Source: a virus
Lineage: Duplodnaviria > Caudoviricetes
Strand: one strand, 5' to 3'
Length of the DNA stretch: 64,000 bases
Virus record (IMG/VR): IMGVR_UViG_3300032320_001595
Coordinates: 17,612 to 81,611 of that record
This document shows, piece by piece, positions 1,283-58,578 of the stretch (within the stretch, counting starts at the first letter, position 1; each line of letters opens with the position of its first letter). Both the position numbers and the translations under genes were made by a program. A model generated the notes under the pieces. It saw nothing but the letters and a program-made list of their open reading frames with translations, had not been told where the DNA came from and searched no databases.

Positions 1283-1293
1283 ATTATACCTTA
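1283..1293 (-). promoter_or_regulatory. -10-only promoter TAAGGTATAAT
   Basis: Identical 11-mer at 10420-10430; lies upstream of a gene start. Confidence 0.55.
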
Positions 1294-2438
1294 GATAGCA
1301 AAGTAATTTTTCTACTCTTTTTTGCCTCTATATTAATAAGTTCTATTGCCTCAGACCACTTATACTTAACCATATTTATATTAAATTGATTTGCTGCGAC
1401 AATATAATTTCTTTCACGCTCTTCATTTCTAATATCTGGATCTAGTAGTTTGGTTAGATGCTTCATCCAATCCTTTGAAGACTTTGCTATTCTTCCAGCA
1501 CCTAAATCCGCTAGATCCTGATACTCTTGTGTGTCAGATGCAATGAATGGTATACCTGACAAGGCATATTCAAGACCCTTTAAATTACTCTTGGCCTCGT
1601 TAAATTGATTCTTTGTCAGAGGAACTATTCCAATGTCAATAGGCATGAAGATATTAGAATAATACTGAGGTCTGGCACCCGTAAAGACACTTACTCTTTC
1701 TGGATCAATATTCAACGCCTCTGCGATCCAGTAGGGTTTATCTAGCATGCCTCCAGAATGATGAAACTTTAAATCGTATCTTTCTATAATTGTTTTGATT
1801 GGTCCTGAAAAATCTTTAAGATCATTTACGCGCCACATCATCATTCCGACCCATCCTATTGTGGGTTTATTGCCAGCGGTATCAAGTCTGTAAGTAAATG
1901 TTTTTGGATCTAGAGAGTTTGGAACGCGGTATACATTTTTATTATATCTATGCATTCTTTCTTCTAAGAATTTCGTACTTGCAATAATTCCATCTGCGGC
2001 AGAATAAGTTGAAATAAGATGATCTCTATTATTCTCTGGATTTCTTTGTGGATCAGTAGTTATAAAGGCTAGGTTGTCTTCTGGAAGTTGTTCGAAATGA
2101 TCATCTGTATCGACAATAACAGTCTGACCGTAACTCTTAGCAAGTTCTATATATTTAACTGCATCCTGGTGCATAAAAAGTTTAAGTACTACTACATCCA
2201 GTTTATCAAAGCACTCGTCATAGGTCTTAATGACCCCAGTCTTTCTATACTTTAATCTTTCTAAAGGCTTTACTGCAACAAAACCCTCGCCATCCTTCCA
2301 GCCAATCTCACCCACCATTACCTGATGACCTATGCTTGTTAACAACATACCTGGCATAAGCATTCTTACGTTGGTGCATCCACCTGGCAGCGCCTCATAG
2401 TGGTCGCCCCAATCTGTAGAAAGAAATCCAATCCTCAT
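1284..2438 (-). CDS. Glycosyltransferase (GT-B, GT4-like)
   Basis: 384 aa; TIGWVG, DIGIVPL...FNEAKSNLKGLEYALSGIPFIASD GT-B C-terminal signature. Confidence 0.8.
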   Translation of the reverse strand: MRIGFLSTDWGDHYEALPGGCTNVRMLMPGMLLTSIGHQVMVGEIGWKDGEGFVAVKPLERLKYRKTGVIKTYDECFDKLDVVVLKLFMHQDAVKYIELAKSYGQTVIVDTDDHFEQLPEDNLAFITTDPQRNPENNRDHLISTYSAADGIIASTKFLEERMHRYNKNVYRVPNSLDPKTFTYRLDTAGNKPTIGWVGMMMWRVNDLKDFSGPIKTIIERYDLKFHHSGGMLDKPYWIAEALNIDPERVSVFTGARPQYYSNIFMPIDIGIVPLTKNQFNEAKSNLKGLEYALSGIPFIASDTQEYQDLADLGAGRIAKSSKDWMKHLTKLLDPDIRNEERERNYIVAANQFNINMVKYKWSEAIELINIEAKKSRKITLLSKV

Positions 2439-22480: not shown

Positions 22481-24922
22481 TTATAAGATATTTCCAGTTA
22501 ATATCCAGTTGTTTAAAGACTTTGCTGTCAATTTTGCGGTAGTCCATTGACCAGACAAAGTTCTTCTATTTAAGAATGAATTTAATGATGCAGAGGTTGT
22601 AGTTTGTATTGCAAATATAACGCTACCAGATCCGCATTGAATAAAATCAATTTCAGTTTTATTATCGAATATAGCATTAAATGCAACAGGAATAATAATA
22701 ACTGTTGATGCTGTAGATGAAACATCTAATCTAGACCACGCATCTGTTGAAGTTAAAGTATAAGCGCTAGCAGTTATATCTACAACATTTTTTTGAGAAT
22801 TTTTAAGAAACCCAGATACATTTAACACATTAGAATCATATGTTAGCCTACCCGCACCGAGTCTAATTTTTCCTGTTATATCTATATGGTCTGGAGGATT
22901 ATTGCCCCAAAAATTACTTACTGTTGGTACGTTTAAAATGATTCCATCTATTTTTGTTAAAGGAGAAGAAGGTCCGCTGTATCCACTAAACTCTCCTGTA
23001 TATGCATATCCCATATTTATAGATCCAGAAGATGCAGTTAATTGACTAAAATCATAATTATTAAATATTCCTTCTTGAGATAATCTACAAAAATATCTAT
23101 TATATAAAGAATTAAAATCTAAAGATGCTGTAACTACATAAAAAACATATGTCGATGACCAAACCCTTGTATCTGAATTTTTTGTAACACTATTAAATAT
23201 TAAATTAGGTTTTGCTATTGGAGAGCCATTCAAAAATGCATTTCCAGAAACAGAACTACCATCGATATAGAAATAATTTCCTGCACCCATTGATTTTTGA
23301 TCTCTAGAAGTGGTTAAAATAAAGTTTCCAGACTGCATTGCATCTGATACTGAAGCGGTTCCTATTATATTTAATATATTATATGAAACTCCAGCGCCTA
23401 TAAGTAATTCTTTAATATTTCCTTTATTAGCAGTAATATTTCCACTTACTTGAAGTTTTCCAGTTATATTATTAAATAAAATACTTCCGCTAGCAGTTGA
23501 TCCATAAATTCCAGAAGAAGATAAAGATAAAAACCCATTATTAGTAGAAGCAGTTAAAGAACCACCAAGTCTTAAATTACCTGAAATACTTCCAGATATT
23601 GCATTTATACTTCCTATGACAGATAAAGTATTATTATTAAAAGTAAGGTTACCAGAACCTAATTTAAAGTCGCCAGATAAATCAATAAAGTCTGGTGAAT
23701 TTCCAGATTTATAATTCTCTAAACTAATTCCCTCTAAAGTATAGATTCCATTATTAAGATCAAAATAATTATCTTGTCCAATAAATACATACCCTATAGT
23801 AAATGATCCAGACGATGCAGATACTCCGTCAAAATTAAAAAAGTTTCCACTAGGATGATTATTAATAGGGGGAGTGACAATTTGGCATAAATATCTATTT
23901 ATAAAATGTGAATAAGTACCCCAGCCTGGTAGGAGTATAGAACTGTCATATTCTGAATATGATGCAGTTAAAACCCTAAATAATTGAGGATGAAATACTG
24001 ATGCACTAACGTATGTATCTTGTTCAAAACTGAGAAGTTGATTACTTTCATTAATAAAACCATGACTATAAGATGAAGTACTGAATGTATCTGTTAGTTT
24101 GAAAACGTCGCCTCGTTTTAATTTTCTATTGAACTGAGTGGCAATATTATTTCTATATTCCGTAGAAGTCATAATAAACAAACCAGTCATAGAGGAAGAA
24201 AATGCTGCTGATGGAGTTGAAACACCTATAATGTTAAGGACTGATGACTGGTTTGGACCAATATCTAAATCATTAATTTTTCCAGAATTTGCTATAACTT
24301 CACCACTAATAGATACCTGTCCAGTTATATTATTATATATAAGGCTGTTACCGCTTGCCGTTCCGAATATTCCTGAAGACGATACTTGTAGTAAACCATT
24401 ATTATTTGAAGCAGTTAAAGACCCTCCAAGGGTAAGATCTCCCTCTAGTACTCCCTCTGTTGCTTCAATTCTTCCGCGAACTGCAACATTGGAAAAAATA
24501 GCATTGCCACTATTTCCTAGATACCATCCAGTACTTCCAAGATCTTTTCCGTCCCAATTTTCATAAGATACTGAGAAAATATCATTCACGCTTGCTGATA
24601 AAACTTGAACAAGTTGATCATTGTCTAGGTACTCAATTACAATGTCATTAGATGGACTTGCTGTAAATTCACGATCTCCAACGTTATTAGATAGAACTTT
24701 GTAAAAATTTTGTCCAGTTGAAGATCCTGTTAAAGATATGGCCATCCCTGGCAAAATTCCTGACGCAGTTCTATTTTGAATTACAATAGGAATAAAGCCA
24801 TCGAATCCATATGATGATATGTTTGCAGACTCTAGCCTATTGACACCCTGTGAGTCAAAGTATGACATTAGTGGCTCAAAGGAATCATTGGTGGGATCTG
24901 AATTAAAATTATTAGTTGCCAT
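22481..24922 (-). CDS. Minor tail/fibre protein with internal tandem duplication and shared C-terminal domain
   Basis: 813 aa, Ser/Gly/Asn-rich; GSTGWYLGNSGNAIFSNVAVRG fibre motif; two ~260-290-aa modules. Confidence 0.75.
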   Translation of the reverse strand: MATNNFNSDPTNDSFEPLMSYFDSQGVNRLESANISSYGFDGFIPIVIQNRTASGILPGMAISLTGSSTGQNFYKVLSNNVGDREFTASPSNDIVIEYLDNDQLVQVLSASVNDIFSVSYENWDGKDLGSTGWYLGNSGNAIFSNVAVRGRIEATEGVLEGDLTLGGSLTASNNNGLLQVSSSGIFGTASGNSLIYNNITGQVSISGEVIANSGKINDLDIGPNQSSVLNIIGVSTPSAAFSSSMTGLFIMTSTEYRNNIATQFNRKLKRGDVFKLTDTFSTSSYSHGFINESNQLLSFEQDTYVSASVFHPQLFRVLTASYSEYDSSILLPGWGTYSHFINRYLCQIVTPPINNHPSGNFFNFDGVSASSGSFTIGYVFIGQDNYFDLNNGIYTLEGISLENYKSGNSPDFIDLSGDFKLGSGNLTFNNNTLSVIGSINAISGSISGNLRLGGSLTASTNNGFLSLSSSGIYGSTASGSILFNNITGKLQVSGNITANKGNIKELLIGAGVSYNILNIIGTASVSDAMQSGNFILTTSRDQKSMGAGNYFYIDGSSVSGNAFLNGSPIAKPNLIFNSVTKNSDTRVWSSTYVFYVVTASLDFNSLYNRYFCRLSQEGIFNNYDFSQLTASSGSINMGYAYTGEFSGYSGPSSPLTKIDGIILNVPTVSNFWGNNPPDHIDITGKIRLGAGRLTYDSNVLNVSGFLKNSQKNVVDITASAYTLTSTDAWSRLDVSSTASTVIIIPVAFNAIFDNKTEIDFIQCGSGSVIFAIQTTTSASLNSFLNRRTLSGQWTTAKLTAKSLNNWILTGNIL

Positions 24923-25823
24923 TCTTTACCGCCTTGCTAAAGAATGGTTTATTTGATGAATTTGTTTGAAGCCACTCTCCACTCCATTCTCCATTCTTTT
25001 TTGTATATCTTGCAATAGCAACATAAAACATATAACTTGGCTTATCTCCTATATCAAAAGTTCTCGTATAAGATTTTACCAAAAAATTTTCTTCTAGACT
25101 TAATGAGTAGGTAGGTGGAGTTTTAAAACTTATTTCTGAATTATCAAACATCGATAATAACTTATCACCGCTTCTAATCTTACCATCATAGTTTCTGTAT
25201 GCATATATTGGAATATCTCTGACAATCCAAGAAGAAACGCCAGTAGGCTTTTCTTTAACATTAATTAATTTTTGAAAAACTGGCGCGTCTGGAATTTGTA
25301 TTGTGTATTTTTTTTGCTTCTTTTTTCCAGTAATTTCTGTTATATAATTGCTTATTTTACTAGTAGTAGCACTATTTTGAGTAGGTTGGTAATCATTTTG
25401 AACTTTAAGAACGATGTAGCATCCTGTTTTATCATTTGAAATTCCTGATTCAATTACTTGCGCTTGCCTATCATTTAAATTAGTTAGGGTAGAGTGGCCA
25501 GCAACAATTTTAATAGTGTCGCCATTAGAAAATTGATTTCTTGGTTTTATTGTGTCAAAGTACAGCCTTAGTCGATAGTGTGATAGTCCTATTGATGGTC
25601 CTTTATTATATCTAATAAAACCAAACTCATTTTCAGAAAAGGTATTAGTATAAACAGTTACAGGAGGAGAGTATGTAGTGGTCACCTTACTCATTAGCGG
25701 GGCAGCCGTAGGAACTCTTAAACTTATTGCTGCAGATCTGGCGATATGCTCAAAAATACTTCCTTCTACAACAAAACTAACAGTATCTCCTGGCTGTAGT
25801 TTTTTAAGATTTAACCGACTCAT
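24912..25823 (-). CDS. Hypothetical tail-module protein
   Basis: 303-aa ORF in tail operon. Confidence 0.65.
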   Translation of the reverse strand: MSRLNLKKLQPGDTVSFVVEGSIFEHIARSAAISLRVPTAAPLMSKVTTTYSPPVTVYTNTFSENEFGFIRYNKGPSIGLSHYRLRLYFDTIKPRNQFSNGDTIKIVAGHSTLTNLNDRQAQVIESGISNDKTGCYIVLKVQNDYQPTQNSATTSKISNYITEITGKKKQKKYTIQIPDAPVFQKLINVKEKPTGVSSWIVRDIPIYAYRNYDGKIRSGDKLLSMFDNSEISFKTPPTYSLSLEENFLVKSYTRTFDIGDKPSYMFYVAIARYTKKNGEWSGEWLQTNSSNKPFFSKAVKNGN

Positions 25824-26773
25824 GACACTCCATAGTTAAAACCTAGAGATAATGAGTATTCTATTGTAAGCGGAATAGAGGCAGGCTTTTTAACTGGTGC
25901 CGCCAGTACAGCCCTAGAGATCATCCCATAATTAGTATCTATAACATAGGAACCAAGGTCTATTCTTAGACCATCTAATAAAATGGTCTGTGAGTTATTC
26001 TGCCAGAATCTAACAAAATTAATATCCGTCCAGGATGGATTGCCTACGATGGTGGCATTTCCTTTTTCTACTTCTGAAATAAAGTATCCTGATGCTGTAG
26101 GGGTAGTAAATGTCAAAGTGTAGTAGTTTGAAGAATCAGTATAGAATCTAAAATTAACACTTGCCGTTGTTATATTATTATCTAGGCCAGCCAATCTAAA
26201 CGTATCTTGAGAGGTGTATCTATTAATATACTCAAGGGTGCCGTCTGTTGAAGAGTACTGTAAATAGTCTGTAGATCCACCAGTTTGGGGGATGGAGTAA
26301 AGTTGTGACCCTATTCTGGCAGTAGTTGTACTTACTAATTGTGACCCAGACGCTGTTCCAAATTTAATAAAACTATCCACGTTGTCAAAGTCAAATATTA
26401 AAGAGCCATTCATTCCAATTGATGAATCTAGTACTGGTGATGGGTACAAAGCAACTTCTCTAATTTCAGACTGGAAGGGGTCATTTATTGTTCCAGAGTA
26501 AACTAAGATATCATTATTATTTTCTATCTGTAAAGAACTTCCTATAACTTTTGTGCGTCCAGTTTCAAATTTCAATGTGCTATTGGTTATCAGACTAGAT
26601 GATGCACTCAATACGTTTGCGGAATCGCCTATTCCATAGGCTATAGTATTTGCAAAACTTGGTATAATGCCAAGGAGAGATTTTATTACAATAGATCTTC
26701 CAGCGACAGTAAGGGCATTTTTCTGCTCATAAACGAGGGTATCGTCTAAATAAAATCTATAAATACCATCCAT
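25820..26773 (-). CDS. Putative baseplate/minor tail protein
   Basis: KNALTVAGRSIV...IAYGIGD...LKFETGR...IREVALY N-terminal pattern typical of baseplate/fibre attachment proteins. Confidence 0.65.
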   Translation of the reverse strand: MDGIYRFYLDDTLVYEQKNALTVAGRSIVIKSLLGIIPSFANTIAYGIGDSANVLSASSSLITNSTLKFETGRTKVIGSSLQIENNNDILVYSGTINDPFQSEIREVALYPSPVLDSSIGMNGSLIFDFDNVDSFIKFGTASGSQLVSTTTARIGSQLYSIPQTGGSTDYLQYSSTDGTLEYINRYTSQDTFRLAGLDNNITTASVNFRFYTDSSNYYTLTFTTPTASGYFISEVEKGNATIVGNPSWTDINFVRFWQNNSQTILLDGLRIDLGSYVIDTNYGMISRAVLAAPVKKPASIPLTIEYSLSLGFNYGVS

Positions 26774-26775: not shown

Positions 26776-28155
26776 TTACTCGCCCTCCGCGACACGGGTT
26801 TCTATTCCATCTTCATCTACTTTAACTACTATGGCCTTCAGACTCTCTATTATATCATTGTTAATGTTGATATTTAAATCATAGTAGGGTTCGCCAGAAG
26901 CATTATAATTCAACTCAAAGAATTCTAAAAATCTTATATAGTAATAGTTAGTACTATTTGGATCTGATTTTGCAAACTCTTTTGTTAATATATCTGTCAC
27001 TCCTAAAAGAATTTCAGATGCTAGTGCGGACTCATTAGATTCAGACTGATTATTTTCTAATGGATCTGTATAAAGAAGATCTCCCTGAAACCCTGAATTT
27101 GCAGGCACTTGATTAATGCCATCATAATCTATTCCGGCCTCAAGAAATTCTCTAGTCGATTTAATTAATGACATTGTTATGCGCTCTACTTCTTTCTTAA
27201 CCTTTGTGTCAATGTTGGGCATCCAAATACGTTCGGCATCTTTAGGGTAGGATATATCTGCACCAAAATTTGTTTTTGGAATATTTGCATCAATGGTGCC
27301 TGTGGCAGAGCGTGTAGTTGGAACATCAGATGCTGCAGAGGTAGCATCATCTTCAACCGAATCATCTTCTTCCCCGCCACCCTTGCCGCCTCCACCATCT
27401 ACGGCTAGTTCGGATATTAAATCTAATTCATTCTTTAGGGTTTTATTTTCTTCTTTAAGTTTTTTTACATCCCCCTGTAATTCATTAATTAATCTAAGAA
27501 TAGCGTCAATATCTTTTTGATTAAATTTACCGTCGTCTAGTACTGGTGGAGGCTGGATTACTCCCCCGCCTGGAGGTTTATCTGGGCCTCCCCCGCCTGG
27601 AGGTTTATCTGGTCCTCCTCCGCCTGGAGGTTTATCTGGACCTCCTCCGCCTGGAGGTTTATCTGGACCTCCTCCTCCGTTGTTATTGCCTCCTCCGCCA
27701 GTTTTTGGAGGAGGAATATTTCCCTTAATATTTGAATCTAATGCTCTATTAAGTTGTTGAGTAAAATATCTTTCTTCATCCTCAGATAGATTGCCTTTGT
27801 TATTAGACATACTTCTAGCAAGTTGCCTTAACTCTTCTGCCTCATTCTGAGTTAATTTTCCAGCCTGTCTCAACTCATTAACTTTATCAATGCGTCTTTG
27901 TTCCTCTGTGGCATTATTTGGTGGCGGAGGAGGCGGTGGAGGTGGTGGTGGCGTAGGCGCAGGAGTAGGTGTAGACACAGAAATAGGGGTAGGCGCAGGC
28001 GCTGGCGGAGGTGGTGGCTTTGGCGCTGGCGGAGGTGGTGGCTTTGGCGCTGGCGGAGGTGGTGGCTTTGGCGCTGGTGGAGGAGGTGGCTTTGGCGCTG
28101 GTTTTGGCGGCGGGGGTGGTGGTTTCGGGGCTGGTTTTGGAGGATTCTTAGCCAT
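26776..28155 (-). CDS. Proline/glycine-rich low-complexity tail-module protein
   Basis: (PAPKPPPP)n and (GGGGPDKPP)n tracts, coiled coil, globular acidic C-terminus. Confidence 0.75.
   Translation of the reverse strand: MAKNPPKPAPKPPPPPPKPAPKPPPPPAPKPPPPPAPKPPPPPAPKPPPPPAPAPTPISVSTPTPAPTPPPPPPPPPPPNNATEEQRRIDKVNELRQAGKLTQNEAEELRQLARSMSNNKGNLSEDEERYFTQQLNRALDSNIKGNIPPPKTGGGGNNNGGGGPDKPPGGGGPDKPPGGGGPDKPPGGGGPDKPPGGGVIQPPPVLDDGKFNQKDIDAILRLINELQGDVKKLKEENKTLKNELDLISELAVDGGGGKGGGEEDDSVEDDATSAASDVPTTRSATGTIDANIPKTNFGADISYPKDAERIWMPNIDTKVKKEVERITMSLIKSTREFLEAGIDYDGINQVPANSGFQGDLLYTDPLENNQSESNESALASEILLGVTDILTKEFAKSDPNSTNYYYIRFLEFFELNYNASGEPYYDLNININNDIIESLKAIVVKVDEDGIETRVAEGE
27564..27671. repeat. 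27-bp coding tandem repeat x4 (GGGGPDKPP)
   Basis: c(c/t)ccgcctggaggtttatctggncctc repeated four times. Confidence 0.9.
28008..28110. repeat. 24-bp coding tandem repeat (PAPKPPPP), 3 perfect copies plus degenerate ones
   Basis: ggcgctggcggaggtggtggcttt repeats. Confidence 0.9.
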
Positions 28156-31100
28156 TACTCTCCCACCTCAATTATTTCTATATTCATGGAAGGTCCATTG
28201 GATGTTACTGCGTGAGATATAGATGATACTGCAAAAACTCTATCTCCAAAGTTTGGCTCATCTTGAACATAGCCACGACTCTTATCGTATATTCTAATTT
28301 TATCGCCTAATTCTAATAATGGATTGGGGTATATTTCCATGGACAGTTTTAGCCTTTGCCTTCCACAATATTTTATAATCCATTTCATTAGATTTTTTGC
28401 TTGGCTTGTGGTTTGAATATACTGACTGTCTAGATTAAATGACTGAGAGCCATATATAGATAGGTTTCTTTCTCTATCTGCAACTTTACGCTTTTTCTCA
28501 TCAACATTATCAAAGTAGTCTTTCATTGTAATAGTTCCAGAACTTAATTCCTCTACTCCAATTCCAACTATATATAATGGCAAACTACTCTCCTCTCCAA
28601 GAAGAATAGGGCCAGAGGAAGTGTTAACAACTATGATCTTAGCCCCAAATGAAGTTGGTTCGTATTTTTTAATCATATACTGTGAGTTAACCTTTGAAAC
28701 ATCAATGAGAGCAGATGAAAACGCAGGGGCTTCAAACCTTATCTCATATTCTTTTACCTGTCTTACTAGTCTAGCAAAGTCATTGAAATAGTATTGAATG
28801 CCATCGTCTTTAAATAAATAATCTTTATTAACAGGTATTACTCCAGACTGAATGGCCTGATCTAAGGTTGTCTTAGATTTAAAATATCCTTTAAGCGGAG
28901 CGCGTGCTGGACGAGCAGCAGCAGCAAACCATTCATATATCGCCTGTGAATCATTTCTTACAAACATGAAAACTCTTGAACCATTTACAGGAACTGCATC
29001 TTCTAACTTTTCTGTATAAGAGCCAATTTCTGTATTACCATAAAAAATAGTATATTCTGTACCATTATTATATTTTACAATTTGAATTTCTAACTCAAAA
29101 ACTGGGTCAGCGACGTTAGTATTCTTTAATACTTGAACCTCAGTATTAGAAACCGTTTGAGCGCCTACTGGTGCTTTTAGAAGCAATTCAGGCTGGTACT
29201 TTCCATCTTTATTTAATGAAATTCTATAGAATCTAAGATTATTTTTAGCGGCCTGTTTAGCAACTGAATCTTTGCCTGCCCCAATAGATTCTACTTCTAG
29301 ATAATATCCTTCGTTATTTCCATTTAGACCAAATCCTATACCAGCAATTGAAGAATTTGTTGACATAATATATTGATCATTCTTTCTTTTCTTTGTAGAA
29401 GAGAATAATCTCATTCTTGTAGATATACTATTTGGAACAAAAGGAAGATCCAAATACTGTCCGTATAGATTTCTTTCACCTTGCATATACACAAATGGAT
29501 CAAAACTCTCTCCTGGAACAATATTGTCTACTTGCTTGTTCATGTTATTAAGAAGATCTACTACCCCAGGAGCGCCCTGATCTAATTTATTTATAATATT
29601 TATATCTTCTGCAGGAGATTGTGGCCCATCTAATTTTAAAAACCCAAGGTAAGATTCAAGATTTGAGAATGAGAGTGTCCCCAGGCTGTTCTTGGCAGAC
29701 TTAAACTTGCTTTGATCTAAGAAATTAAATTTTGTAGTTGCCTTAATATTTCCTGGAACAGAATAATTTTTTGTTTCCCCAAAACTTAATTTAAATGTTT
29801 TGCTTGGACTAATTCCGTCGCTATTTTCTGCTAATGAGTAGTGAGATTCAATGGTGCTGCCAAGTTTAGCCCTACCATCACCAACTACCTCGTATGTATA
29901 ACTGTCTTCTGATTTAGATACTATATTTAACCCTACATATATAACCAATCCAATAAACGCTATAGAGCCACCAGATGGAATAAATCTAATAATTTCTTGA
30001 AACTCTTCTTCGCTAAATATAATTCTTAAGTTTCCATTTACAGAATAAAGTTTACCTCTATACTTTATGTATTCTTTATCTATAAGAACAGTTCCCTCGT
30101 AATCAGGTATTGTGTAACCCTCATTCTTGTCTATGAATATAATTAAATCTTTTTTGGCGGCTAGTGCTGCATTTGCTCCACCAGTCCAACTAGAACTAAT
30201 GTTTGTACTTTGATATATATTTCTTACCGCCTCATCTTCATTTAAGGCAACATATTGTTTATCAAAAACATCTTTAAGCCTTCTGTTTCCAAGATCTAGA
30301 GTTAGGTTTGCTGCGCCCATCACAGAGGAATTATCTTGTCCTGGAGTCCATAAGATTTTAGTCGCATATGTATAGTTAGAAAATGCTAGTGCGGCAGCGG
30401 GGAAGTCTTGAGTTAATTGATTTAACACATTGCTGGGAATATTATTAATCCCAGGGACTTTTCTTGGACCAAATGAATGATATCGAATATCTCCATCTGT
30501 AACAGGATTAATTTTATTTTCTCCATAAGACATTACGTTTGTTCTATATGAGGATATGTAGTTGTATTCACTAGCATTTCCCCCTCCAGATTTTGTATAA
30601 TCCTCATCGAATATCATCCAAAAATCTGTGCCAGGAAGTTGTGCGGGAACTGGATGGTCTTGAGAAACCCAGAAACCATAATAATCACTATAGGTCCATT
30701 GTGTTTCAAATGGTAGGGCGTCAGTATTGCCTCCGTAGAAAAACCAATTATTGCTATACCAAACATATTTATATGGGTCTGGGTTAGTATTAATTTGCTG
30801 GGCAGAGTCTTGTATAGAAACTTTTTGTGACAATCTTTCTTTTGTAAAAACATTTAGGCTGCCTTCATTATCGTAAAAGAAACAGCATTGAGTCGCTACT
30901 GCAATAGATTCAAGAACCTCTGCTACCGTCTGCTCTTTTTTACAAAAAAAGTTTCTAATTACAACATCTTCATTTTTACTATTCGGGCCATATGATTTTT
31001 TAAACTCATACCCAGAAAATCCAGAATTATCTAGAAGAGATAAAATAATAAAAGATAGTTTATTGCTTTTTCCGTATCCTTTCAGGAACAGGTCTGGAGC

Positions 31101-32366
31101 CTGAGTCTGTCTTAGATACTTCATTCCGTCTTCAATTCCTACTGAAACAGAGTAATCTTCTGCTACGTTCCACTCATTTGAATACATAACTTTCAGTGGA
31201 ATAACGCTAGCAGTTATTTCTGGGCTGTCGATTATTTGATAGAAAGTAAACTTTACATCTGGATTTAACATGTTTAAATCATTTAGGGTGCTGGAGAATA
31301 AGAATTGATTTTCTTCATTTGACAATGCTAATTGTCCAGTACTTGACACCACAGATCCGACTGGCAAACCTATATTAGTTGTATCTCCAATTGATGAATT
31401 AAATGAAAATGACTCTGTATATTGTGTTAAATCTATTTCTAATCTTGGAGAGATTTCAATGACCTCTAGGCCACCAGGATTTTTTGGCTTGGTTGTCCCA
31501 CCATTATTCTGTATATTCTTAACGTTCATATTAAAAACCAATAACCTAACTCCATCAATTTTTATTAATTGAGTTGGACTTACACTAGTCAGTTGGTTTA
31601 GATCATCTACTCTTCTGACAGTTTTTGACCAAGAATTATTGTAATAATATATATCGCAAATTCCGTTAGAGAAATATGCAGATGCTCCACCTGGCTCTCT
31701 TACACTAACTGCAGTTTGCCATGATCCCGATTTTAAAAACTGTATAGCAAATTGATCTGGTGAAGTCAGATGGTTCTGCACTTTAATTGTAATTTTATTG
31801 CAAGGAAGAGTTTCATTATATACCACAAATGGGTTGGCAGCAGAAATATTTCCATTCTCCATTACTACGCCATTAGTATCTAGTGTTGAACCCATTACCT
31901 TAGCACTATTAAAGTAGTCGTACTCTCTTGAGTATGAGAACGGATAGAATCTAGGAGAAGCAGAGTTTATATTGTCCTGTTTGATATTTGTAGCGTTTCC
32001 AACAATTAGATTGTTTCCATATTTTTGTAGTAATACAATTCCTGGATTTGGTCTATTTGGTTTAAAAATAGATGAAAGGCTAGAAAAATATTCTTGACTT
32101 GCGGCTCTTTTTACCGTGTTGTCATCATAAATAATATAGTTGTCTCCAGATAGTATTTCTGATGAAGAGGCATTATAGATAGGAGTATTGGATGCTGTTA
32201 CTGGATTTTTGTAAATACCGTATTGTTCAATTTCGTAGTATTTATTCATATTCCATTCAGCAATAACTGAATGCTCACTACTTATAGTATCAATATTTTT
32301 TAGTAGATTTCTTGTTGCTCCATAGTCTAACACTAGACCTCCACCAAAGTCATTGAAATATCCCAA
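28155..32366 (-). CDS. Large minor tail protein (tail tip/hub-like)
   Basis: 1403 aa, two genes downstream of tape measure; beta-rich; C-terminal YIQ...QAKNLMKWI...PLLELGDKIRI hub-type motif. Confidence 0.75.
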   Translation of the reverse strand: MGYFNDFGGGLVLDYGATRNLLKNIDTISSEHSVIAEWNMNKYYEIEQYGIYKNPVTASNTPIYNASSSEILSGDNYIIYDDNTVKRAASQEYFSSLSSIFKPNRPNPGIVLLQKYGNNLIVGNATNIKQDNINSASPRFYPFSYSREYDYFNSAKVMGSTLDTNGVVMENGNISAANPFVVYNETLPCNKITIKVQNHLTSPDQFAIQFLKSGSWQTAVSVREPGGASAYFSNGICDIYYYNNSWSKTVRRVDDLNQLTSVSPTQLIKIDGVRLLVFNMNVKNIQNNGGTTKPKNPGGLEVIEISPRLEIDLTQYTESFSFNSSIGDTTNIGLPVGSVVSSTGQLALSNEENQFLFSSTLNDLNMLNPDVKFTFYQIIDSPEITASVIPLKVMYSNEWNVAEDYSVSVGIEDGMKYLRQTQAPDLFLKGYGKSNKLSFIILSLLDNSGFSGYEFKKSYGPNSKNEDVVIRNFFCKKEQTVAEVLESIAVATQCCFFYDNEGSLNVFTKERLSQKVSIQDSAQQINTNPDPYKYVWYSNNWFFYGGNTDALPFETQWTYSDYYGFWVSQDHPVPAQLPGTDFWMIFDEDYTKSGGGNASEYNYISSYRTNVMSYGENKINPVTDGDIRYHSFGPRKVPGINNIPSNVLNQLTQDFPAAALAFSNYTYATKILWTPGQDNSSVMGAANLTLDLGNRRLKDVFDKQYVALNEDEAVRNIYQSTNISSSWTGGANAALAAKKDLIIFIDKNEGYTIPDYEGTVLIDKEYIKYRGKLYSVNGNLRIIFSEEEFQEIIRFIPSGGSIAFIGLVIYVGLNIVSKSEDSYTYEVVGDGRAKLGSTIESHYSLAENSDGISPSKTFKLSFGETKNYSVPGNIKATTKFNFLDQSKFKSAKNSLGTLSFSNLESYLGFLKLDGPQSPAEDINIINKLDQGAPGVVDLLNNMNKQVDNIVPGESFDPFVYMQGERNLYGQYLDLPFVPNSISTRMRLFSSTKKRKNDQYIMSTNSSIAGIGFGLNGNNEGYYLEVESIGAGKDSVAKQAAKNNLRFYRISLNKDGKYQPELLLKAPVGAQTVSNTEVQVLKNTNVADPVFELEIQIVKYNNGTEYTIFYGNTEIGSYTEKLEDAVPVNGSRVFMFVRNDSQAIYEWFAAAARPARAPLKGYFKSKTTLDQAIQSGVIPVNKDYLFKDDGIQYYFNDFARLVRQVKEYEIRFEAPAFSSALIDVSKVNSQYMIKKYEPTSFGAKIIVVNTSSGPILLGEESSLPLYIVGIGVEELSSGTITMKDYFDNVDEKKRKVADRERNLSIYGSQSFNLDSQYIQTTSQAKNLMKWIIKYCGRQRLKLSMEIYPNPLLELGDKIRIYDKSRGYVQDEPNFGDRVFAVSSISHAVTSNGPSMNIEIIEVGE

Positions 32367-32875: not shown

Positions 32876-35800
32876 TTATATGCTCCTACTATGATTTCTA
32901 CGATTATTTGATGAGTTAATCATACTAGCAACCTTATTAGCAATTGCTGTAGCACTCTTTCCGCTAACCCCATTAATTACAATCTTAACGTTGCTGGAAG
33001 AATTATTAGTTGAAGATGTTCCTCCATTTACAGTTGTTGCAATACTTGAAGATGGAGCGGTAGGCATTGAAGGCATTCCAAAGGACGGCATGTTAAAGTT
33101 TCCAGAATTAATTTGATCCATAAAACCGCGACCATACTTATCTACAGCATTTGACTTCATCACATATTCACCGCTTGAAAGAAGAGCGGGAACCGTATCA
33201 GATCTTGGTCCACCCATTCCACCAACAAATCCACCCGCTGCAAACTTAGATGGTCTTTTAATTGAAACTACAGGATGGTTTGAAAATCCCCCTTGGATTC
33301 CAACGCCACCATTGAAAACTTTTCCTGCGCCCATATACATCTCAACGTGATTTACTGGATTCTGAGTATTTACACCGCTTGAATTATAGTAAAAGATTAA
33401 ATCTCCTGGAGCAATATTAGATCTGCTAACAGTTTGCCTCAATCCAGCATACTGTCCGTATGATAGTGATGGGCTTGGAAGAGTTATTCCAGCACCATTC
33501 TTATAAAGCCATGCAACAGAAGTAGCGCATCCCCATCCAGTTGGATTTCCACTTTTATCTGTTTGAATTGGATATGCGCTTGAGTATGGCAAGTATGAAT
33601 ATTTTTGTGCTAAGGAAAGAATATTATCCATTCCTGGAGCAACTGGTGGGTTTGTTGTTACGCCGCCAGGAGGTGGTGAACCTGTTCCAGTACCAGGATC
33701 TGGTTTTGGTTTATTTTTGTTTGGAAATATTCTTCCCTCAACAAGTTTTGGAGATGCAAAATTAAACGATCCTCTTTCTGCAGTATTTTGACCACCTTCA
33801 ATTAGCCCACCTTCAGCAAATTTTTGAGTGTTGATTGCATCCATTAATCCTGTGCCGTACTTCTTGACACTAGATGCCTGAACTACATATTCTCCATTAG
33901 AAAGCATTGCGGGGATTACATCAGACTTGGGGCCGCCTGGTCCAGATATTGGGCCTCCATTAGCCCTATTAGGGATAGGAGATGTTCCTGGCCTCATGCC
34001 CAAAAGTTCTGCTATTGTTGCGGCATTATAGTTTATTCCTGTTTGAGTTCTATCCTGTTCTGGATATAGCGTCATTAATCTTTCTTTTGCATTTTTCAAT
34101 GCTTCTTCAGCAGATATTTTATTCTTAATATCTGCAAGATACATTGTTCTAATTAAGGCTTTTTGCTCTTCAATGTAGGGGGCAGCCAATTCTGGCCCAA
34201 GAACTTTTGCAAGGTCTTTAGCACTAATTATTTGTTGAGCCTCTGCTGCATCTATAGCCTTTTGAATTCCTTCTCTTTTAACTTGTTCCTTTGCTCTAGC
34301 ATCTTGAAGATCTTCAACTCTTTTTTCTTTTATTTTCTTAAACTCTTCTAGTTGAGCCTCAAAACCTTTTTGTCTTTCATCTTGAAGATCTCTCTCAGCA
34401 TCCATCTGGTCATTAATTAAATCAATCTTTTCTTGTTGATTTTTCTCAAACTGTTCTTGTCTTTCTTGCTCTTTCTCAATTGTGTCTTCAATGGCGTTAA
34501 CTTCTTTTTCGCGTCGATCTTCTATGGATTGAATCTGATTGTCATAGGAGAATTGTTGAGCCTCTTGCCCCATCTCTGTTCTTGCCTGGAGGAAGCCAAA
34601 TACATCTCCAGAAGCCAATTTTTGGAGGGCACTAAAAGCAGTCTTTCTTTGATTTGCATAGAAACTATCTACTCTTTGACGTTTTTGAATAGATTTAATG
34701 TATGCATCTGTGGCCTCTACAATTCCATCTTTTTCTTCATTTAATGAGTCGATCTTTTCTTGAGTTTCTTCACGACGCTTATCAATCTTTTCTTGAATAA
34801 GGTCTGCTTCATCCTGCATTGCTTCTATAGCAGCATCAGATGCTTCTTGAGTGGCCTCAAAGTTTTCTTGAAGTTTTTCTGTGCCCTTTTCTAAACTATT
34901 TTGCACACGGTTAATCTGTTTATCAAGACCTTCAATATTGTCATCTGTTGCTTCAAGATTCTTTGTTAGATCAGCACCTAGCGCTTCAGATATAGAATCT
35001 TTTAGATTCTGTATATTTATTTCAGCCTGTCTGGTGTCTACCCTTATTTTAATCTCTGCGTCTAGAGTTCCTGCTTCTATCGCAGCAATAATTTCTGGAA
35101 GACTCATCCCAGCACTTAACGCTCTTAAAACTTGCTTTGCCTTATCAGCATTTTCATCTATCATAGAAGCCAATCTTGATCCAGCGACTTCATCAATACC
35201 TTTTAGGTACTCCTCTATCTGATCTACATTAAATGTTTCATCAGTTGTCGCTGCTATTTGATCAAAATATTTAATTGCTTCTTGTGGTGCCTCTGTAAAT
35301 GTTTGGAAATAAAATTCTGCTGCCTTAATTAATTCATCTGATGATGTTGTCGCTAAATCTCCTATCCTTGCGGCATCTCTAACATAGTCTGAAGATCCAA
35401 ATGCAATTGCTGATCTACCATACCCTCTTGTTGTTCCTGGACTTACTACATTCCTTCTTCTTTCTTCACCGCTTACAGTAATTCTTTCAATTGCTGCCTG
35501 AGCCTGTTCTCCACCAGCAGCGCTAGATCTAAATGAAAGCATAGCGTCTAGAGTTGATGTTGCTTCAAGCATTCCCTGTCCCATAGCGGTAGCAAATGCC
35601 TGACCGCCCTTAACCCCTGCTTCTACTGCAATCGCCTCAACTGATGCCGTTGCCTGTTCTGCTGATAGTCCTGAGGCAATCATCTTATTAAATGCATTTG
35701 ATAATTCTCTTGCCCCTACCTCAGATCCCTGCCTTTGAATATTTTCAATAAGGGGGGCGTAATCTTGTTTAACTGCTTCTCTTAGACCTTGATCAACTTC

Positions 35801-38800
35801 GCCAGCATTCAGGCCAGCCTCTTTTGATGAGGCAGCCATATCGCTAAACTGTTGAGTTACTGATTTAATGTTTTCGCCAAAATATTCTGCTGTTTTTACT
35901 GGATCTGCAAATGCTGCTATAGCCCTTTCTCTTGCCTCTTCAGCAGCCTTCTTGTATAGCATAAATCCAGTAATGGCAGCAGTAATACCTAGGCCAGCGG
36001 CAATGCCAACTGGACCGCCAAGCATACTTAACATTGCTCCTCCACGCGCGAGCCCTGACCCTGCTCCCGCTAAACCTCCAGGCATCTTCATGGCGGCCCC
36101 TGCTCCAGCGGCTTTTCCTACGCCCATGCTTAATGGAGCCATTGGAGCCTTTAGCCCTATAGAGGCTGCGGCGCGAGCAGCACCTGCGGCTTTTAGTTTT
36201 TCACCTAAAGATCCTAAACCTAAGAAATTTCCAAGAACATTTGATCCGCCAAAGATTTGCATAGCAGTTGTTGCTGTCATAAGTGCAGTTGTAAATAGAC
36301 CAATCTTTGCGGCGGCATCAGATGAGGCACCAGTAACCAAAGTCAAACTAGAGGCAGCCATCATAGCGGCAAAAGAAGCGTTTGATGCAGCATTTAGCCT
36401 AGATCCACCTGGGCCTCCAGCCTCACCACTTGTAGACCTGTCAAGACCTCTACTGAGTCCACTAATTACCCCACGACCAACATTACGACCAGTTGCCTCT
36501 CCTACTGCCTCTGCTTCTTTAGAGGGAGATGAAGAACGAGTAGCGTCTGCAGCCCCTTTACCCATACCAGTAACAAAGAATGGAGTGGGGTCAACTGTCA
36601 TGGTCCTATCTTGTAGATATGTCCTTGGAATACGCCCAGGCTTTAAATCAGTATACCCAGGAATTCCAGCAGTTGTTGCTCCAAAAGCCTGTCTTCTTCC
36701 TCCGCGAGTTCCTTCTGGTCCAACAGACATTGTTTGGAAGGCTCCGTATTGACCAGAAACAGTTTGCAATGTTAGAGCAGCCTTATTACTTGTATTTGCA
36801 AGTTTTCTTAATGCTTCCTCTACTGCTGCATACATCATAGGATCGTCAATAACTTCTTTACCTAGAGCATTAAGTTCTACAATTATTTGATCTATAACAG
36901 GTTGTAGTTCTGCAAATGACAGACCTGTTTGATCCATCATTAACTGCCATGCCTGCTGACTTTGAAATTGAGTTTTCAAGGATTGATTATGTTGGGCAAT
37001 TTCTAAATCATTTAATTTTTCCCTTGCAGCGCTATCTGTTAACAATCTATTTGTTGATTGTGTGAGCATCAAAACCAGATTACTGTATACATTCATCTGC
37101 TTCACTCCTGCGGCTGCCATTGCATCTATAAGCCCCATTGCATAGGGACTTGCAATTGCCCTAAACATAGCCATTGTTTTTTCATCTTGCAGGTTAACTC
37201 TACCTGGAGCAGCAATATGTGCTTTTACTAAACCACCAGTTTGATACTTACCCACCTTCCCTGAATTCATTGCAGATAAAAGAGGGCCAAAAGAAGATGC
37301 TGCTTTTCTATTGACAATAAATTCTCCAGGCTCAAGTAGGGCGGGGATCTTATCTCCACTTCCAGACCCTGGAACATATTCGGGGTTCTTAGACCCTGCC
37401 TGCCTCTTAATAGGGGCAGTACCTCTACCAGCAGCACCAGGAATAAATAATGCAGGGTTTGTAGTTTGTAATGTTCTAAGAGAAGCCCCGTAGGATGACA
37501 TGGCTCCAATAAGTTGTCTTAATGCCCGTTCTTGAGTTGTGAATGATCCAGTCAAAGTGTCAACGCCTAGTCTGGCTGCCATCACTTCTTCATTAAGTAA
37601 TTCAAACTTTTCTACTCTAAGGCCAGCGATTCTTGCCCCTAACCTTACCATCATCATCCCAAACTTGATTCCATTGGCAATTAGGTTTCCAAATAGACCG
37701 ACCAACATAATAACGGGACCAGCAAGAGCAGCAATTGCTGTTCCATACTTAGCAAAATTCTTTATTGGCTCTGGTAGAGCCTGGAAGAATTCAATAAACT
37801 TTCCAGCGGCTTGACCAATAAATTGAAAAATGGGAATTAAGGATTCTGTTAAAGTTTCACCAATAGGTATAAGAGTATTTCTTAATTGCTCTAATGTTCT
37901 CTGGAACTTCATGGCGGTACTCTCTTGAAGAGTCTTTAACTCTGCATTTGCAATAGCCGCTAATTCTACAGAACTGTTAGCAGTTAACTCTAAAACGCTT
38001 TGTGTCTGAGAACCCATTCTTCCAAGATTCTCAAATAGCGCACTCATTCTAGCAAACTGATACTTACCAAAAATTTCTTCAATAATTCTTGCCCTGCCAA
38101 AATCGTCAAGACCCTGCAGGGCGTTCTGCATGGCATAGATAGTTGGCATAAGTTGACCCTTATTGTCTTCAACTATCTTATTAAGATTAATTCCAAATTC
38201 TTTTGCAACATCTGAAGCCTTTTGAGTTGGGTTAATCATTGATGCCAGACCAGATTTAATGGCGTTTGCGGCCTCTGCTGCTGGTACGCCGCCTTCGCGC
38301 ATAGCCACAAGCATCATGGCGAGATCCTGAATGTCTCCGCCAAGACTTTGTACAACGGGTCCTACTCTTGGAATGGCAGTAGCAAAGTCTTGAAGTGTTG
38401 TAGAAGTTTGATTTTCAACAGCGTTGAGAAAGTTAATAGACTGTGTTAACTCATCGGTATCCATTTTAAATGCGGACTGGATTGCAAGAGTGGCCTTCAT
38501 TGCCTCTTGCCTATCGACTTCACCAAGGACTGCTAGCCTTGTAGTTTCTTGTACAGACTTAATTAATTTTTCTCCCTCTGCACCTGTTGCTGCAATATCG
38601 GCAGCGAGGGCAGCAGTTTCTGTTGCGGCAATGCCATAGTTTCTTCCAATACTAAACGCTAATTCTTCAACCTGCTTCCTCATTGCCTCAGTAGAGTTCT
38701 TCATAGAACTTCCTAGATCTTGTCCGTAAACCTTTTGGAATCTAGTGAGTTCTTTATCTAGGTCACGGAATTGTTTTGATACAGCAGCAGTAAACAGCGC

Positions 38801-39361
38801 TAAAGGTATTGTAAAACCAACCATAAGTTGTCGGCCTGCCCATTGAGTATTCTTACCAAAATTAAGAAGTGACGTTGAACCGCCCTCAATTAATTTATTA
38901 AAGATAGAAAACTTTTGAGAGGCAATAGCGGTAGAACTAGTAAGAGAATTTACCTGGGCTGGAGTTATCATCATTGCCTGACCAGCAGCAGTACTTACAG
39001 CAATAGATTGTTGATATCTAACTTGCTGAATAGCAAGTTCCTTTAACATACTATTCTGACGGGTGTATCCAGCAAATGCCTCACGGAAGTATTGACGCAT
39101 GGTTAGGCGATTTGATGCAAGAGCCTTACCGAATCCTTCTACAGCAGACTGTGCTTGAACGGTCTTAGCAGTAAATCCACCAATCTGCCCAACATTAGTA
39201 GCGAATGTAGATGCAAGACTTCTTTGTGCGGATAAGGCGCTTTTGTCAAGTGTATTAAATGCGGCAGTCAGGCCAGCAATCTGGCCCGTTAAAGCCTTAA
39301 TTTGCGCCTGTGCTGGCGACAAATTAGCATTATAAGTTATGACAGAATGTATATTAGCCAA
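32876..39361 (-). CDS. Tape measure protein with C-terminal NlpC/P60-like peptidase domain
   Basis: 2161 aa, Ala-rich helical, TP901-type core (ETAALAADIAATG...RLAVLGEVD), TM-like segments, coiled coil, GCAT...GDLIFY...NHVEMY. Confidence 0.92.
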   Translation of the reverse strand: MANIHSVITYNANLSPAQAQIKALTGQIAGLTAAFNTLDKSALSAQRSLASTFATNVGQIGGFTAKTVQAQSAVEGFGKALASNRLTMRQYFREAFAGYTRQNSMLKELAIQQVRYQQSIAVSTAAGQAMMITPAQVNSLTSSTAIASQKFSIFNKLIEGGSTSLLNFGKNTQWAGRQLMVGFTIPLALFTAAVSKQFRDLDKELTRFQKVYGQDLGSSMKNSTEAMRKQVEELAFSIGRNYGIAATETAALAADIAATGAEGEKLIKSVQETTRLAVLGEVDRQEAMKATLAIQSAFKMDTDELTQSINFLNAVENQTSTTLQDFATAIPRVGPVVQSLGGDIQDLAMMLVAMREGGVPAAEAANAIKSGLASMINPTQKASDVAKEFGINLNKIVEDNKGQLMPTIYAMQNALQGLDDFGRARIIEEIFGKYQFARMSALFENLGRMGSQTQSVLELTANSSVELAAIANAELKTLQESTAMKFQRTLEQLRNTLIPIGETLTESLIPIFQFIGQAAGKFIEFFQALPEPIKNFAKYGTAIAALAGPVIMLVGLFGNLIANGIKFGMMMVRLGARIAGLRVEKFELLNEEVMAARLGVDTLTGSFTTQERALRQLIGAMSSYGASLRTLQTTNPALFIPGAAGRGTAPIKRQAGSKNPEYVPGSGSGDKIPALLEPGEFIVNRKAASSFGPLLSAMNSGKVGKYQTGGLVKAHIAAPGRVNLQDEKTMAMFRAIASPYAMGLIDAMAAAGVKQMNVYSNLVLMLTQSTNRLLTDSAAREKLNDLEIAQHNQSLKTQFQSQQAWQLMMDQTGLSFAELQPVIDQIIVELNALGKEVIDDPMMYAAVEEALRKLANTSNKAALTLQTVSGQYGAFQTMSVGPEGTRGGRRQAFGATTAGIPGYTDLKPGRIPRTYLQDRTMTVDPTPFFVTGMGKGAADATRSSSPSKEAEAVGEATGRNVGRGVISGLSRGLDRSTSGEAGGPGGSRLNAASNASFAAMMAASSLTLVTGASSDAAAKIGLFTTALMTATTAMQIFGGSNVLGNFLGLGSLGEKLKAAGAARAAASIGLKAPMAPLSMGVGKAAGAGAAMKMPGGLAGAGSGLARGGAMLSMLGGPVGIAAGLGITAAITGFMLYKKAAEEARERAIAAFADPVKTAEYFGENIKSVTQQFSDMAASSKEAGLNAGEVDQGLREAVKQDYAPLIENIQRQGSEVGARELSNAFNKMIASGLSAEQATASVEAIAVEAGVKGGQAFATAMGQGMLEATSTLDAMLSFRSSAAGGEQAQAAIERITVSGEERRRNVVSPGTTRGYGRSAIAFGSSDYVRDAARIGDLATTSSDELIKAAEFYFQTFTEAPQEAIKYFDQIAATTDETFNVDQIEEYLKGIDEVAGSRLASMIDENADKAKQVLRALSAGMSLPEIIAAIEAGTLDAEIKIRVDTRQAEINIQNLKDSISEALGADLTKNLEATDDNIEGLDKQINRVQNSLEKGTEKLQENFEATQEASDAAIEAMQDEADLIQEKIDKRREETQEKIDSLNEEKDGIVEATDAYIKSIQKRQRVDSFYANQRKTAFSALQKLASGDVFGFLQARTEMGQEAQQFSYDNQIQSIEDRREKEVNAIEDTIEKEQERQEQFEKNQQEKIDLINDQMDAERDLQDERQKGFEAQLEEFKKIKEKRVEDLQDARAKEQVKREGIQKAIDAAEAQQIISAKDLAKVLGPELAAPYIEEQKALIRTMYLADIKNKISAEEALKNAKERLMTLYPEQDRTQTGINYNAATIAELLGMRPGTSPIPNRANGGPISGPGGPKSDVIPAMLSNGEYVVQASSVKKYGTGLMDAINTQKFAEGGLIEGGQNTAERGSFNFASPKLVEGRIFPNKNKPKPDPGTGTGSPPPGGVTTNPPVAPGMDNILSLAQKYSYLPYSSAYPIQTDKSGNPTGWGCATSVAWLYKNGAGITLPSPSLSYGQYAGLRQTVSRSNIAPGDLIFYYNSSGVNTQNPVNHVEMYMGAGKVFNGGVGIQGGFSNHPVVSIKRPSKFAAGGFVGGMGGPRSDTVPALLSSGEYVMKSNAVDKYGRGFMDQINSGNFNMPSFGMPSMPTAPSSSIATTVNGGTSSTNNSSSNVKIVINGVSGKSATAIANKVASMINSSNNRRNHSRSI

Positions 39362-49758: not shown

Positions 49759-49764
49759 AATATG

Positions 49765-49772
49765 ATTATACT
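49765..49772 (-). promoter_or_regulatory. -10 promoter (AGTATAAT) 6 nt before ATG 49758, leaderless type
   Basis: Directly after the ssb stop codon. Confidence 0.5.
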
Positions 49773-50153
49773 CTAATTCCAATCGATATTAGATGCTACT
49801 GAAGATGACACCTTTGATTTAAGTAATAGGTCTTTTCCAATATGCTGCGCCTTTACCTCAAAGGAATACTTTCTTTCCCCGCTACTTGTATCTATCCATG
49901 AAGTTTCTTTAATAACTCCATTGACAATCACTTGCTCCCCGCGATTAAATTCACCAGAAATATTTTCTGCCAGACGATCCCAAGCAGTAATATTCCATCC
50001 AGATGTATCATGGTCTTCCCATTCACCAAAAGCATTCTTACGGCGGTCATTAGTGATTAGTCTAAATCTTGCTACTGACGTTCCACTCGGCAGAGTCTTA
50101 AACTCTACATCATTTGCCACTCTACCAATTAAAGTAATATTAGGGTTAGACAT
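49773..50153 (-). CDS. ssb: Bacterial-type single-stranded DNA-binding protein (OB fold)
   Basis: NITLIGRVANDVEFK...VARFRL...WNITAW..LAEN...RGEQVIVNG. Confidence 0.88.
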   Translation of the reverse strand: MSNPNITLIGRVANDVEFKTLPSGTSVARFRLITNDRRKNAFGEWEDHDTSGWNITAWDRLAENISGEFNRGEQVIVNGVIKETSWIDTSSGERKYSFEVKAQHIGKDLLLKSKVSSSVASNIDWN

Positions 50154-58577: not shown

Positions 58578-58578
58578 T

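Follow-up and report, generated by a model that had tools for sequence, protein, structure and literature searches.

A Ser/Thr-Ala-Ser tripeptide enriched in tail and fibre proteins of an uncultured siphovirus is probably a sugar attachment site that goes with one conserved glycosyltransferase gene

Gene content of the window

The virus record IMGVR_UViG_3300032320_001595 (hereafter G000) is 81.6 kb long, and the window analysed here is its right-hand 64 kb, in which all genes lie on the minus strand. The outer tail and fibre proteins encoded in this window contain the tripeptide Ser/Thr-Ala-Ser ([ST]-A-S) at about four to ten times chance frequency. The tripeptide is probably a site at which the phage attaches sugars of its own, and its excess goes with one conserved glycosyltransferase (GT) gene, here called w384. 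Gene roles assigned through PHROGs and Pfam comprise terminase, portal, protease, capsid, adaptor, a major tail protein with an Ig domain, a tape measure of 2161 amino acids (aa), minor tail proteins, fibres, DnaB and DnaE. The G000 portal shares 52% identity with those of Streptomyces BE-cluster phages and the gene order is syntenic with that of Streptomyces phage StarPlatinum. A megablast search of the head module against cultured phages gave no match. Judging from portal identity and gene order, the phage is an uncultured relative of actinophage siphoviruses with a low G+C content (39%). The features on which the analysis turns are as follows.

22481..24922, minus strand: 813-aa tail fibre, 16 [ST]-A-S sites
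59775..62246, minus strand: 823-aa fibre matching PHROG tail-fibre families, 12 sites against 2.0 expected
48910..49782, minus strand: 290-aa protein directly upstream of the portal gene, no family match, 7 sites against 0.6
25820..26773, minus strand: 317-aa tail protein (phrog_9983), 4 sites against 0.5 expected
1284..2438, minus strand: w384, a 384-aa GT4-type (GT-B fold) glycosyltransferase by Pfam, PHROG and fold model
28155..32366, minus strand: 1403-aa minor tail protein, weakly enriched, 3 sites against 1.0
62272..63960, minus strand: 562-aa fibre or structural protein, 3 sites against 1.6
32876..39361, minus strand: tape measure, 2161 aa, an internal virion protein used as negative control, 1 site against 3.0
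50153..54487, minus strand: accessory sugar cluster (GT-B, methyltransferase, sulfotransferase and other genes)

Two GT-B genes lie in the window; the initial annotation had counted four glycosyltransferases there, of which only two pass the Pfam cut-offs. Further sugar genes are found upstream of the window in G000, namely Gmd, Fcl-like and DegT/ColD-like genes, two GT2 genes, GT25, GT11 and GT10.

Excess of the tripeptide in tail and fibre proteins

Expected frequencies were obtained from composition-preserving shuffles. The 813-aa fibre contains 16 [ST]-A-S tripeptides against 1.38 expected (standard deviation 1.16), and none of the 2000 shuffles reached 16; the initial annotation, working from hand counts, had put the chance figure at 1-2. 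Its counts were reproduced for the 813-aa (16), 823-aa (12), 290-aa (7; given there as 282 aa from a later start) and 317-aa (4) proteins, for the 562-aa and 1403-aa proteins (3 each) and for the major tail, adaptor and major capsid proteins (2 each). The statement that every Ala-Ser dipeptide of the 813-aa fibre follows Ser or Thr, with some 16 of about 42 Ala residues in the motif, proved exact (16/16 and 16/42). The sites are at residues 52, 87, 109, 170, 188, 306, 319, 368, 457, 476, 522, 598, 629, 717, 737 and 777. Given the positions of Ala, the two flanking residues are coupled (hypergeometric P 4.5e-7). Ranked by excess, TAS leads all tripeptides in this fibre (z 18.5); SAS is at the top in the 290-aa protein and takes third place in the 823-aa fibre. 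When tail and fibre proteins are pooled, with propeller repeats removed, SAS and TAS come second and third behind PPP. The rank of PPP is owed to a 459-aa protein of the tail block (26776-28155; 28 against 2.4 expected), which has long Pro runs, zero [ST]-A-S and no family match.

The enrichment survived the composition-preserving shuffles that had been proposed as a check, including those confined to blocks. When the 813-aa fibre was shuffled inside blocks of 20, 30 or 50 residues the expectation was 1.4-1.7, which rules out an artefact of local composition. Codons at the sites are mixed, with Ser encoded by both TCN and AGY and with varied Ala and Thr codons. The signal therefore lies at the protein level, and a word in the DNA (a restriction or methylation site, or a codon context) is ruled out.

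Neither duplication nor common descent within the genome accounts for the excess. The 813-aa fibre consists of a small N-terminal beta-barrel, a duplicated module of about 290 residues and a C-terminal domain of about 95 residues. The two module copies (about 146-437 and 433-704) are 33% identical (E 1.6e-40), and four site pairs are paralogous between them, so that about 12 of the 16 sites are independent and the signal remains. Many database homologues of this fibre have a single copy of the module and are about 520-560 aa long. With the 823-aa fibre it has only the C-terminal domain in common (residues 719-812 and 730-821, respectively; 27% identity, E 4e-9), and the 290-aa protein matches neither; common ancestry of the enriched proteins is thus ruled out. 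The shared C-terminal domain also matches several PHROG families of minor tail and virion structural proteins.

The near-absence of the motif from other proteins, remarked on at the outset, was also reproduced: the tape measure and DnaE have one site each, the portal, helicase and terminase none, and none of these controls is enriched. The claim of strong enrichment throughout the tail and fibre proteins stands in part. It holds for the 813-, 823-, 290- and 317-aa proteins, but the major capsid, major tail, adaptor, 1403-aa and 562-aa proteins, with 2-3 sites each, are individually non-significant (p 0.02-0.2). Orthologues of the 562-aa protein in two related records, G001 and G003, have 6 and 8 sites.

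Distribution of the motif among related phages

Twenty five related IMG/VR records were fetched whole and compared together with G000. Eleven of these 26 phages carry w384 and 15 do not, and the observed over expected ratio (O/E) of the motif in their Ser/Thr-rich proteins differs between the two groups.

w384 carriers (11): 504 sites observed and 133 expected in Ser/Thr-rich proteins, O/E 3.8, per-genome range 2.6-7.6; other proteins, O/E 1.28
Non-carriers (15): 196 sites observed and 142 expected in Ser/Thr-rich proteins, O/E 1.4, per-genome range 0.65-3.6; other proteins, O/E 1.02

All 11 carriers were enriched and 12 of the 15 non-carriers were not. If only contigs of 75% completeness or more are counted, seven from carriers and seven from non-carriers, the ranges do not overlap (2.6-5.1 vs 0.65-1.5). 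The same difference is seen within homologous sequence: BLAST-aligned Ser/Thr-rich segments hold 375 motifs in 44.6 k aa on the carrier side (87 expected) and 87 motifs in 43.8 k aa on the side lacking w384 (78 expected). Homologues of the 823-aa fibre have observed/expected values of 12/2.0, 12/2.8 and 19/3.3 in carriers, and of 2/1.8, 3/2.1 and 2/3.1 in non-carriers. The portal-adjacent protein has 4-12 sites in carriers and 0-2 in most non-carriers, and in the alignment of the 317-aa tail protein sites present in w384-carrying orthologues are replaced in those lacking w384.

No excess was found in gp34-37 of T4, in the tail proteins of StarPlatinum or in the whole genomes of Arthrobacter phage Atuin and Streptomyces phage Zuko. 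A general property of tail fibres is therefore ruled out. The suggestion that other relatives might use a different sequon found no support, since no alternative Ser/Thr-type tripeptide stands out as enriched in the non-carriers G006 or G007.

Association of w384 with the excess

Among sugar genes, a first comparison found w384 alone to be common to every enriched genome. Genes were then clustered all-against-all into 383 families (open reading frames of at least 100 aa). Only w384 was present in 10/10 enriched genomes and in 0/7 of the others, in a grouping that was itself defined by w384. Because of this, the screen was repeated on O/E in Ser/Thr-rich proteins, taken as a quantitative trait; of 64 variable families w384 predicted it best (Mann-Whitney p 0.0012, with no correction for kinship). 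The second-best correlate, level with two GT2 genes, was a 175-aa protein without a family match (4691-5218), present in 7/10 carriers and 0/7 non-carriers. A forward test was made with 16 further long contigs found through DnaE, among which w384 occurred in G033 only. Of the eight that were fetched, G033 had an O/E of 2.99, and six of the seven non-carriers, including the complete genome G022, had values of 1.0-1.5. The exception was G032 (64% complete, four Ser/Thr-rich proteins), with an O/E of 3.1 and no w384.

In DnaE trees (IQ-TREE, 18 rows; FastTree, 26 rows) three well-supported clades each hold carriers and non-carriers, which are interleaved within them and have similar G+C contents. 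In five independent pairs differing in w384 the enrichment went in the same direction in 4.2-4.7 and in the opposite direction in none. These contrasts bear on phylogenetic inertia, whereby the excess would have arisen once or twice, through descent or the exchange of motif-rich fibre modules, and hitch-hiked with w384 without any functional tie. Such a history could accommodate a sample of about five independent contrasts, the mosaic nature of the fibre genes (Pfam domains differ among homologues) and the occurrence of single motif-rich fibres in the non-carriers G032 and G009. However, the excess involves no fewer than four to five protein families per genome, which have at most a short domain in common; sites come and go between close orthologues while their density is kept, and the same specificity recurs in clades whose DnaE proteins are about 56-58% identical. 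We consider inertia very unlikely.

The two motif-rich fibres just mentioned lie at G032:55705-58344 (6 sites vs 1.3) and G009:23852-25786 (4 vs 0.8), with no w384 found on the contig, and the near-identical sister contigs of these records (G029 and G006, respectively) are at expectation. Either w384 lies off the fragment or carriers and non-carriers exchange fibre modules.

Motif specificity, site turnover and fibre structure

Specificity was examined in 81 proteins of at least 200 aa and at least 18% Ser plus Thr from 10 w384-carrying genomes, picked without regard to the motif. The pattern x-A-S is raised only when the first residue is Ser (4.1x) or Thr (3.6x), [ST]-x-S only for Ala (3.9x) and Gly (2.0x), and [ST]-A-x only for Ser (3.9x; Thr 1.1x). 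The requirement is thus position-specific, with Ser or Thr first, Ala and then Gly second, and Ser but not Thr third. Gly in the middle position is raised 2.0x in carriers and 1.2x in non-carriers. Beyond the tripeptide itself, residue preferences at flanking positions stay at or below 1.7x in 415 unique instances.

The sites turn over among homologues. Nearly all of the 45 homologues found for the 813-aa fibre are enriched, and an alignment of 31 of them has 54 motif columns, of which about a dozen are widely conserved and some 40 sparsely occupied. The best-kept sites are those at residues 598 (30/31), 170 (20/22) and 476 (19/22), the others being lineage-specific. Where Ala occurs in a sparse column the full tripeptide is almost always there, so that the three residues are gained and lost as a unit. 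In the 290-aa protein, five orthologues at 40-56% identity show 14 motif columns with only two of them fixed, and 4-9 sites per protein; within its clade this protein was found only in w384-carrying members.

A model of the 813-aa fibre built from 31 sequences has a predicted local distance difference test score (pLDDT) of 56, and its usable parts are the N-terminal domain and residues 510-640. These are small beta-barrels with generic matches in fold searches (Z 8.5 or less). In these parts of a poor model, sites fall at strand ends (52, 522, 629), inside strands (109, 598) and in a loop (87).

Such placement raises the question of whether the tripeptide is a structural element of beta-rich fibre domains, with the small Ala at the core and the hydroxyls opposite, or else a strand-end cap. 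No enzyme would then be involved, and the link with w384 would reflect which fibre modules circulate among which phages. Several sites are indeed strongly conserved at 40-50% identity, A599 and S600 being invariant; those in confident model parts lie in or at the end of strands of small beta-barrels, and the two halves of the internal duplication have four pairs of sites in common. A structural role fits less well with homologous segments without w384 being at expectation (87 vs 78), with the lack of flanking context in the 415 instances, with the rejection of Thr in the third place although Thr favours beta-strands, with site turnover among orthologues, or with the lack of excess in T4 fibres and in StarPlatinum, Atuin and Zuko tail proteins. 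We regard it as unlikely.

Identity and fold of w384

The w384 protein scores 29.1 bits against Pfam Glyco_trans_1_4 (PF13692; cut-off 27) and matches phrog_7162, annotated 'glycosyltransferase', with an E of 4.6e-33. It has more than 300 close metagenome homologues, and its Atlas cluster numbers about 1900 members, 99% of them viral. Sequence searches of the PDB with w384 and with the 813-aa fibre returned zero matches. The AlphaFold model of w384 has a pLDDT of 89.6 and a predicted template modelling (TM) score of 0.89, and Foldseek matched it to retaining GT-B enzymes of family GT4 (7qsg, E 5e-15; TM 0.6-0.67). The top structural neighbours are a mycobacterial mannosyltransferase, MshA, BshA, PimA, PglA and WaaG. 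Further down the list are the protein Ser-O-glycosyltransferases SdgB (7ec1) and GtfA (4pqg), with E about 1e-11. On this confident model w384 is predicted to be a GT4-type glycosyltransferase of GT-B fold. Family GT4 includes cytoplasmic protein Ser-O-glycosyltransferases. The predicted fold is compatible with such an activity, but does not say that the acceptor is a protein. Distant w384-like genes (25-29% identity), often in two copies, are also carried by over 100 phi92/Phapecoctavirus-type myoviruses of E. coli and Klebsiella.

The nature of the neighbours leaves room for another reader of the motif that merely co-occurs with w384, such as a host glycosyltransferase, kinase or protease, a phage chaperone or a phage gene of less than 100 aa, with w384 itself targeting, for example, host envelope glycans or DNA. 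Besides the fact that the nearest structural neighbours are not protein transferases, carriers and non-carriers may have different hosts, the gene-family screen covered open reading frames of at least 100 aa only, and the 175-aa protein is carrier-restricted too (7/10 vs 0/7). Set against these points, w384 alone among the families separates the two groups without exception and is the strongest predictor of O/E, it predicted the one enriched genome (G033) among eight new ones, and carriers and non-carriers interleave in three clades at similar G+C. A different reader is, in our judgement, rather unlikely.

Interpretation of the motif

The excess, together with the co-occurrence of w384 across 26 phages, suggests that the tripeptide is probably a sugar attachment site. 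More specifically, it appears fairly likely that w384, the candidate reader, recognises [ST]-[A>G]-S as an acceptor motif (sequon) and that this motif has been selected into outer virion proteins. We infer that w384 acts on protein and that the motif is its acceptor, and likewise which residue would be modified and what the glycan would do. The sequon would be selected into outward-facing tail and fibre proteins, and w384 would read it in the cytoplasm of the infected cell and add the first sugar to a Ser hydroxyl; our guess is that the acceptor is the invariant Ser in third place. Variable sugar islands would provide the donors and elongate or decorate the glycan, these islands in G000 being the upstream GDP-sugar pathway with GT2, GT25, GT11 and GT10 and the cluster at 50153-54487. 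The finished glycan might mask the fibres or take part in host interaction. Each of the three rival explanations weighed above has some data on its side, yet none accounts for homologous proteins of non-carriers in three clades having lost the motif. The initial annotation had proposed a sequon read by phage enzymes, which is supported in part: the concept of a sequon holds, with w384 as its correlate, whereas the enzymes named then mostly do not track the motif.

A number of results weigh against the w384 sequon. Among the proteins of the window, the two propeller proteins are unenriched (2 sites vs 3.2 expected and 2 vs 0.8), so that the remark that the motif marks their old outer blades rests on four motifs. 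Other Ser/Thr-rich outer proteins of carriers, the 703-aa and 725-aa fibres of G002 and G003, are likewise without enrichment. Some excess occurs in three fragments lacking w384 (G009, 3.6; G032, 3.1; G008, 2.1), with 2-11 proteins each. The absence of w384 is itself uncertain in G008 and G017, whose contigs stop before the expected place, and doubtful in G016, where the contig runs on for just 2 kb beyond the syntenic anchor. The sign test on the five independent pairs gives p 0.06-0.125, in a design where five pairs cannot go below 0.06. Distant w384-like genes are present in Atuin (about 32% identity) and Zuko (25-28%), neither of which shows motif enrichment. The best structural neighbours of w384 (MshA, BshA, PimA and PglA) use small molecules, lipids and glycans. 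Lastly, A599 and S600 of the 813-aa fibre lie in a strand with hydrophobic residues on both faces, and site 598 looks structural rather than exposed in the model.

More tentatively, the widespread, virus-specific GT4 family could represent a dedicated virion O-glycosyltransferase with the sequon [ST]-[A/G]-S, gained and lost over evolutionary time in the fibres of siphoviruses related to actinophages, with exchangeable islands setting the glycan. It may also be an instance of something more general, with different tripeptide sequons serving different phage lineages. The hypothesis is a concrete one, of one gene and one tripeptide with joint gain and loss in three clades. If true, glycosylated phage surfaces and glycan coats would be predictable from genomes and metagenomes, and the pair of enzyme and sequon could possibly be used to glycosylate chosen proteins in the bacterial cytoplasm. 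Glycans on fibres matter for host recognition, for escape from recognition by hosts or grazers and for the immunogenicity of therapeutic phages.

Relation to known glycosylation systems

A few mycobacteriophages are known to glycosylate their virions with enzymes of their own. To our knowledge, no sequence rule has been described for which virion residues are modified or by which enzyme. In mycobacteriophages Che8, Corndog and Myrna, virion O-glycosylation by phage glycosyltransferases has been reported (Freeman et al. 2023, Cell Host Microbe 31:1216, cited in PMC12582341). The present case is similar in that an actinophage-like tailed phage has its own glycosyltransferases, with virion proteins as the presumed target. 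Capsid and tail-tube subunits of these mycobacteriophages reportedly have Ser/Thr-rich C-terminal extensions that bear the sugars, with no tripeptide sequon defined. In contrast to these sites, the candidate sites here are dispersed and lie mainly in fibres and tail-tip proteins, with two each in the capsid and major tail proteins.

Gram-positive bacteria have cytoplasmic GT4 enzymes that O-glycosylate Ser in proteins, namely GtfA/GtfB, which act on serine-rich repeat adhesins, and SdgA/SdgB, which act on Ser-Asp repeats. They share superfamily and fold with w384 and modify Ser in a short Ser/Ala-type context; the repeats of serine-rich repeat adhesins read like S-A-S-x. Unlike the long, tandem, low-complexity repeats used by GtfA and SdgB, the sites described here are single, 9-250 residues apart and set in folded beta-rich domains without a flanking pattern. 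Moreover, w384 is closest to MshA-, BshA- and PimA-like structures, and sequence identity is only 11-16%. In chlorovirus PBCV-1, virus enzymes glycosylate the major capsid protein, N-linked on Asn at non-canonical sequons, and the glycans are chemically characterised. As proposed here for our phage, PBCV-1 encodes the machinery itself and has it act at a short virus-specific motif in virion proteins, irrespective of the sequons of the host. It differs in being a eukaryotic virus with N-linked sugars, whereas our case concerns a bacterial host and a presumed O-link on Ser.

Accessory sugar genes

The cluster at 50153-54487 comprises genes for a GT-B enzyme (324 aa), a weakly matching S-adenosylmethionine (SAM) methyltransferase (174 aa), a protein of unknown role (243 aa), two weakly GT-A-like paralogues (223 and 219 aa) and a sulfotransferase (276 aa). 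Among the 11 enriched genomes (the screen covered the ten other than G033) it occurs only in G000 and G002. A fibre-adjacent cluster found in 2/11 enriched genomes is ruled out as the writer of the motif, and could at most decorate the glycan. The partnership first proposed between the motif and the GT, methyltransferase and sulfotransferase genes of this cluster is accordingly not supported, and the glycan or sulfoglycan coat built on it is speculation for this phage group. Co-variation of the motif with GT genes in relatives, which had been suggested as a check, points in a consistent direction for w384 but not for the cluster, and non-carriers keep other GT-B genes.

G000 and G002 share 98% identity in the GT-B gene of the cluster, against about 75% in w384, and core genes differ too. 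The propeller genes adjoining the cluster have a G+C content of about 50%, against 39% for the genome. From these figures the region 50153-59778 looks like a recently exchanged cassette.

Non-carriers, besides having other GT-B genes, have no GT2 genes and few sugar-nucleotide enzymes. In relatives lacking w384 a different GT-B gene (342-368 aa) lies about 4 kb downstream of DnaE (G006:48178-49206, G007:15018-16124, G009:8352-9380), and G006 has two more GT-B genes besides. The non-carrier G016 is also without the 14-kb sugar island of its carrier relatives. In G013 this island of about 14 kb (65753-79636) holds epimerase/dehydratase and GT2 genes between conserved genes; a shorter insert occupies the same site in G010 (47747-51325), and in G016 (75199-76625) the island is missing there.

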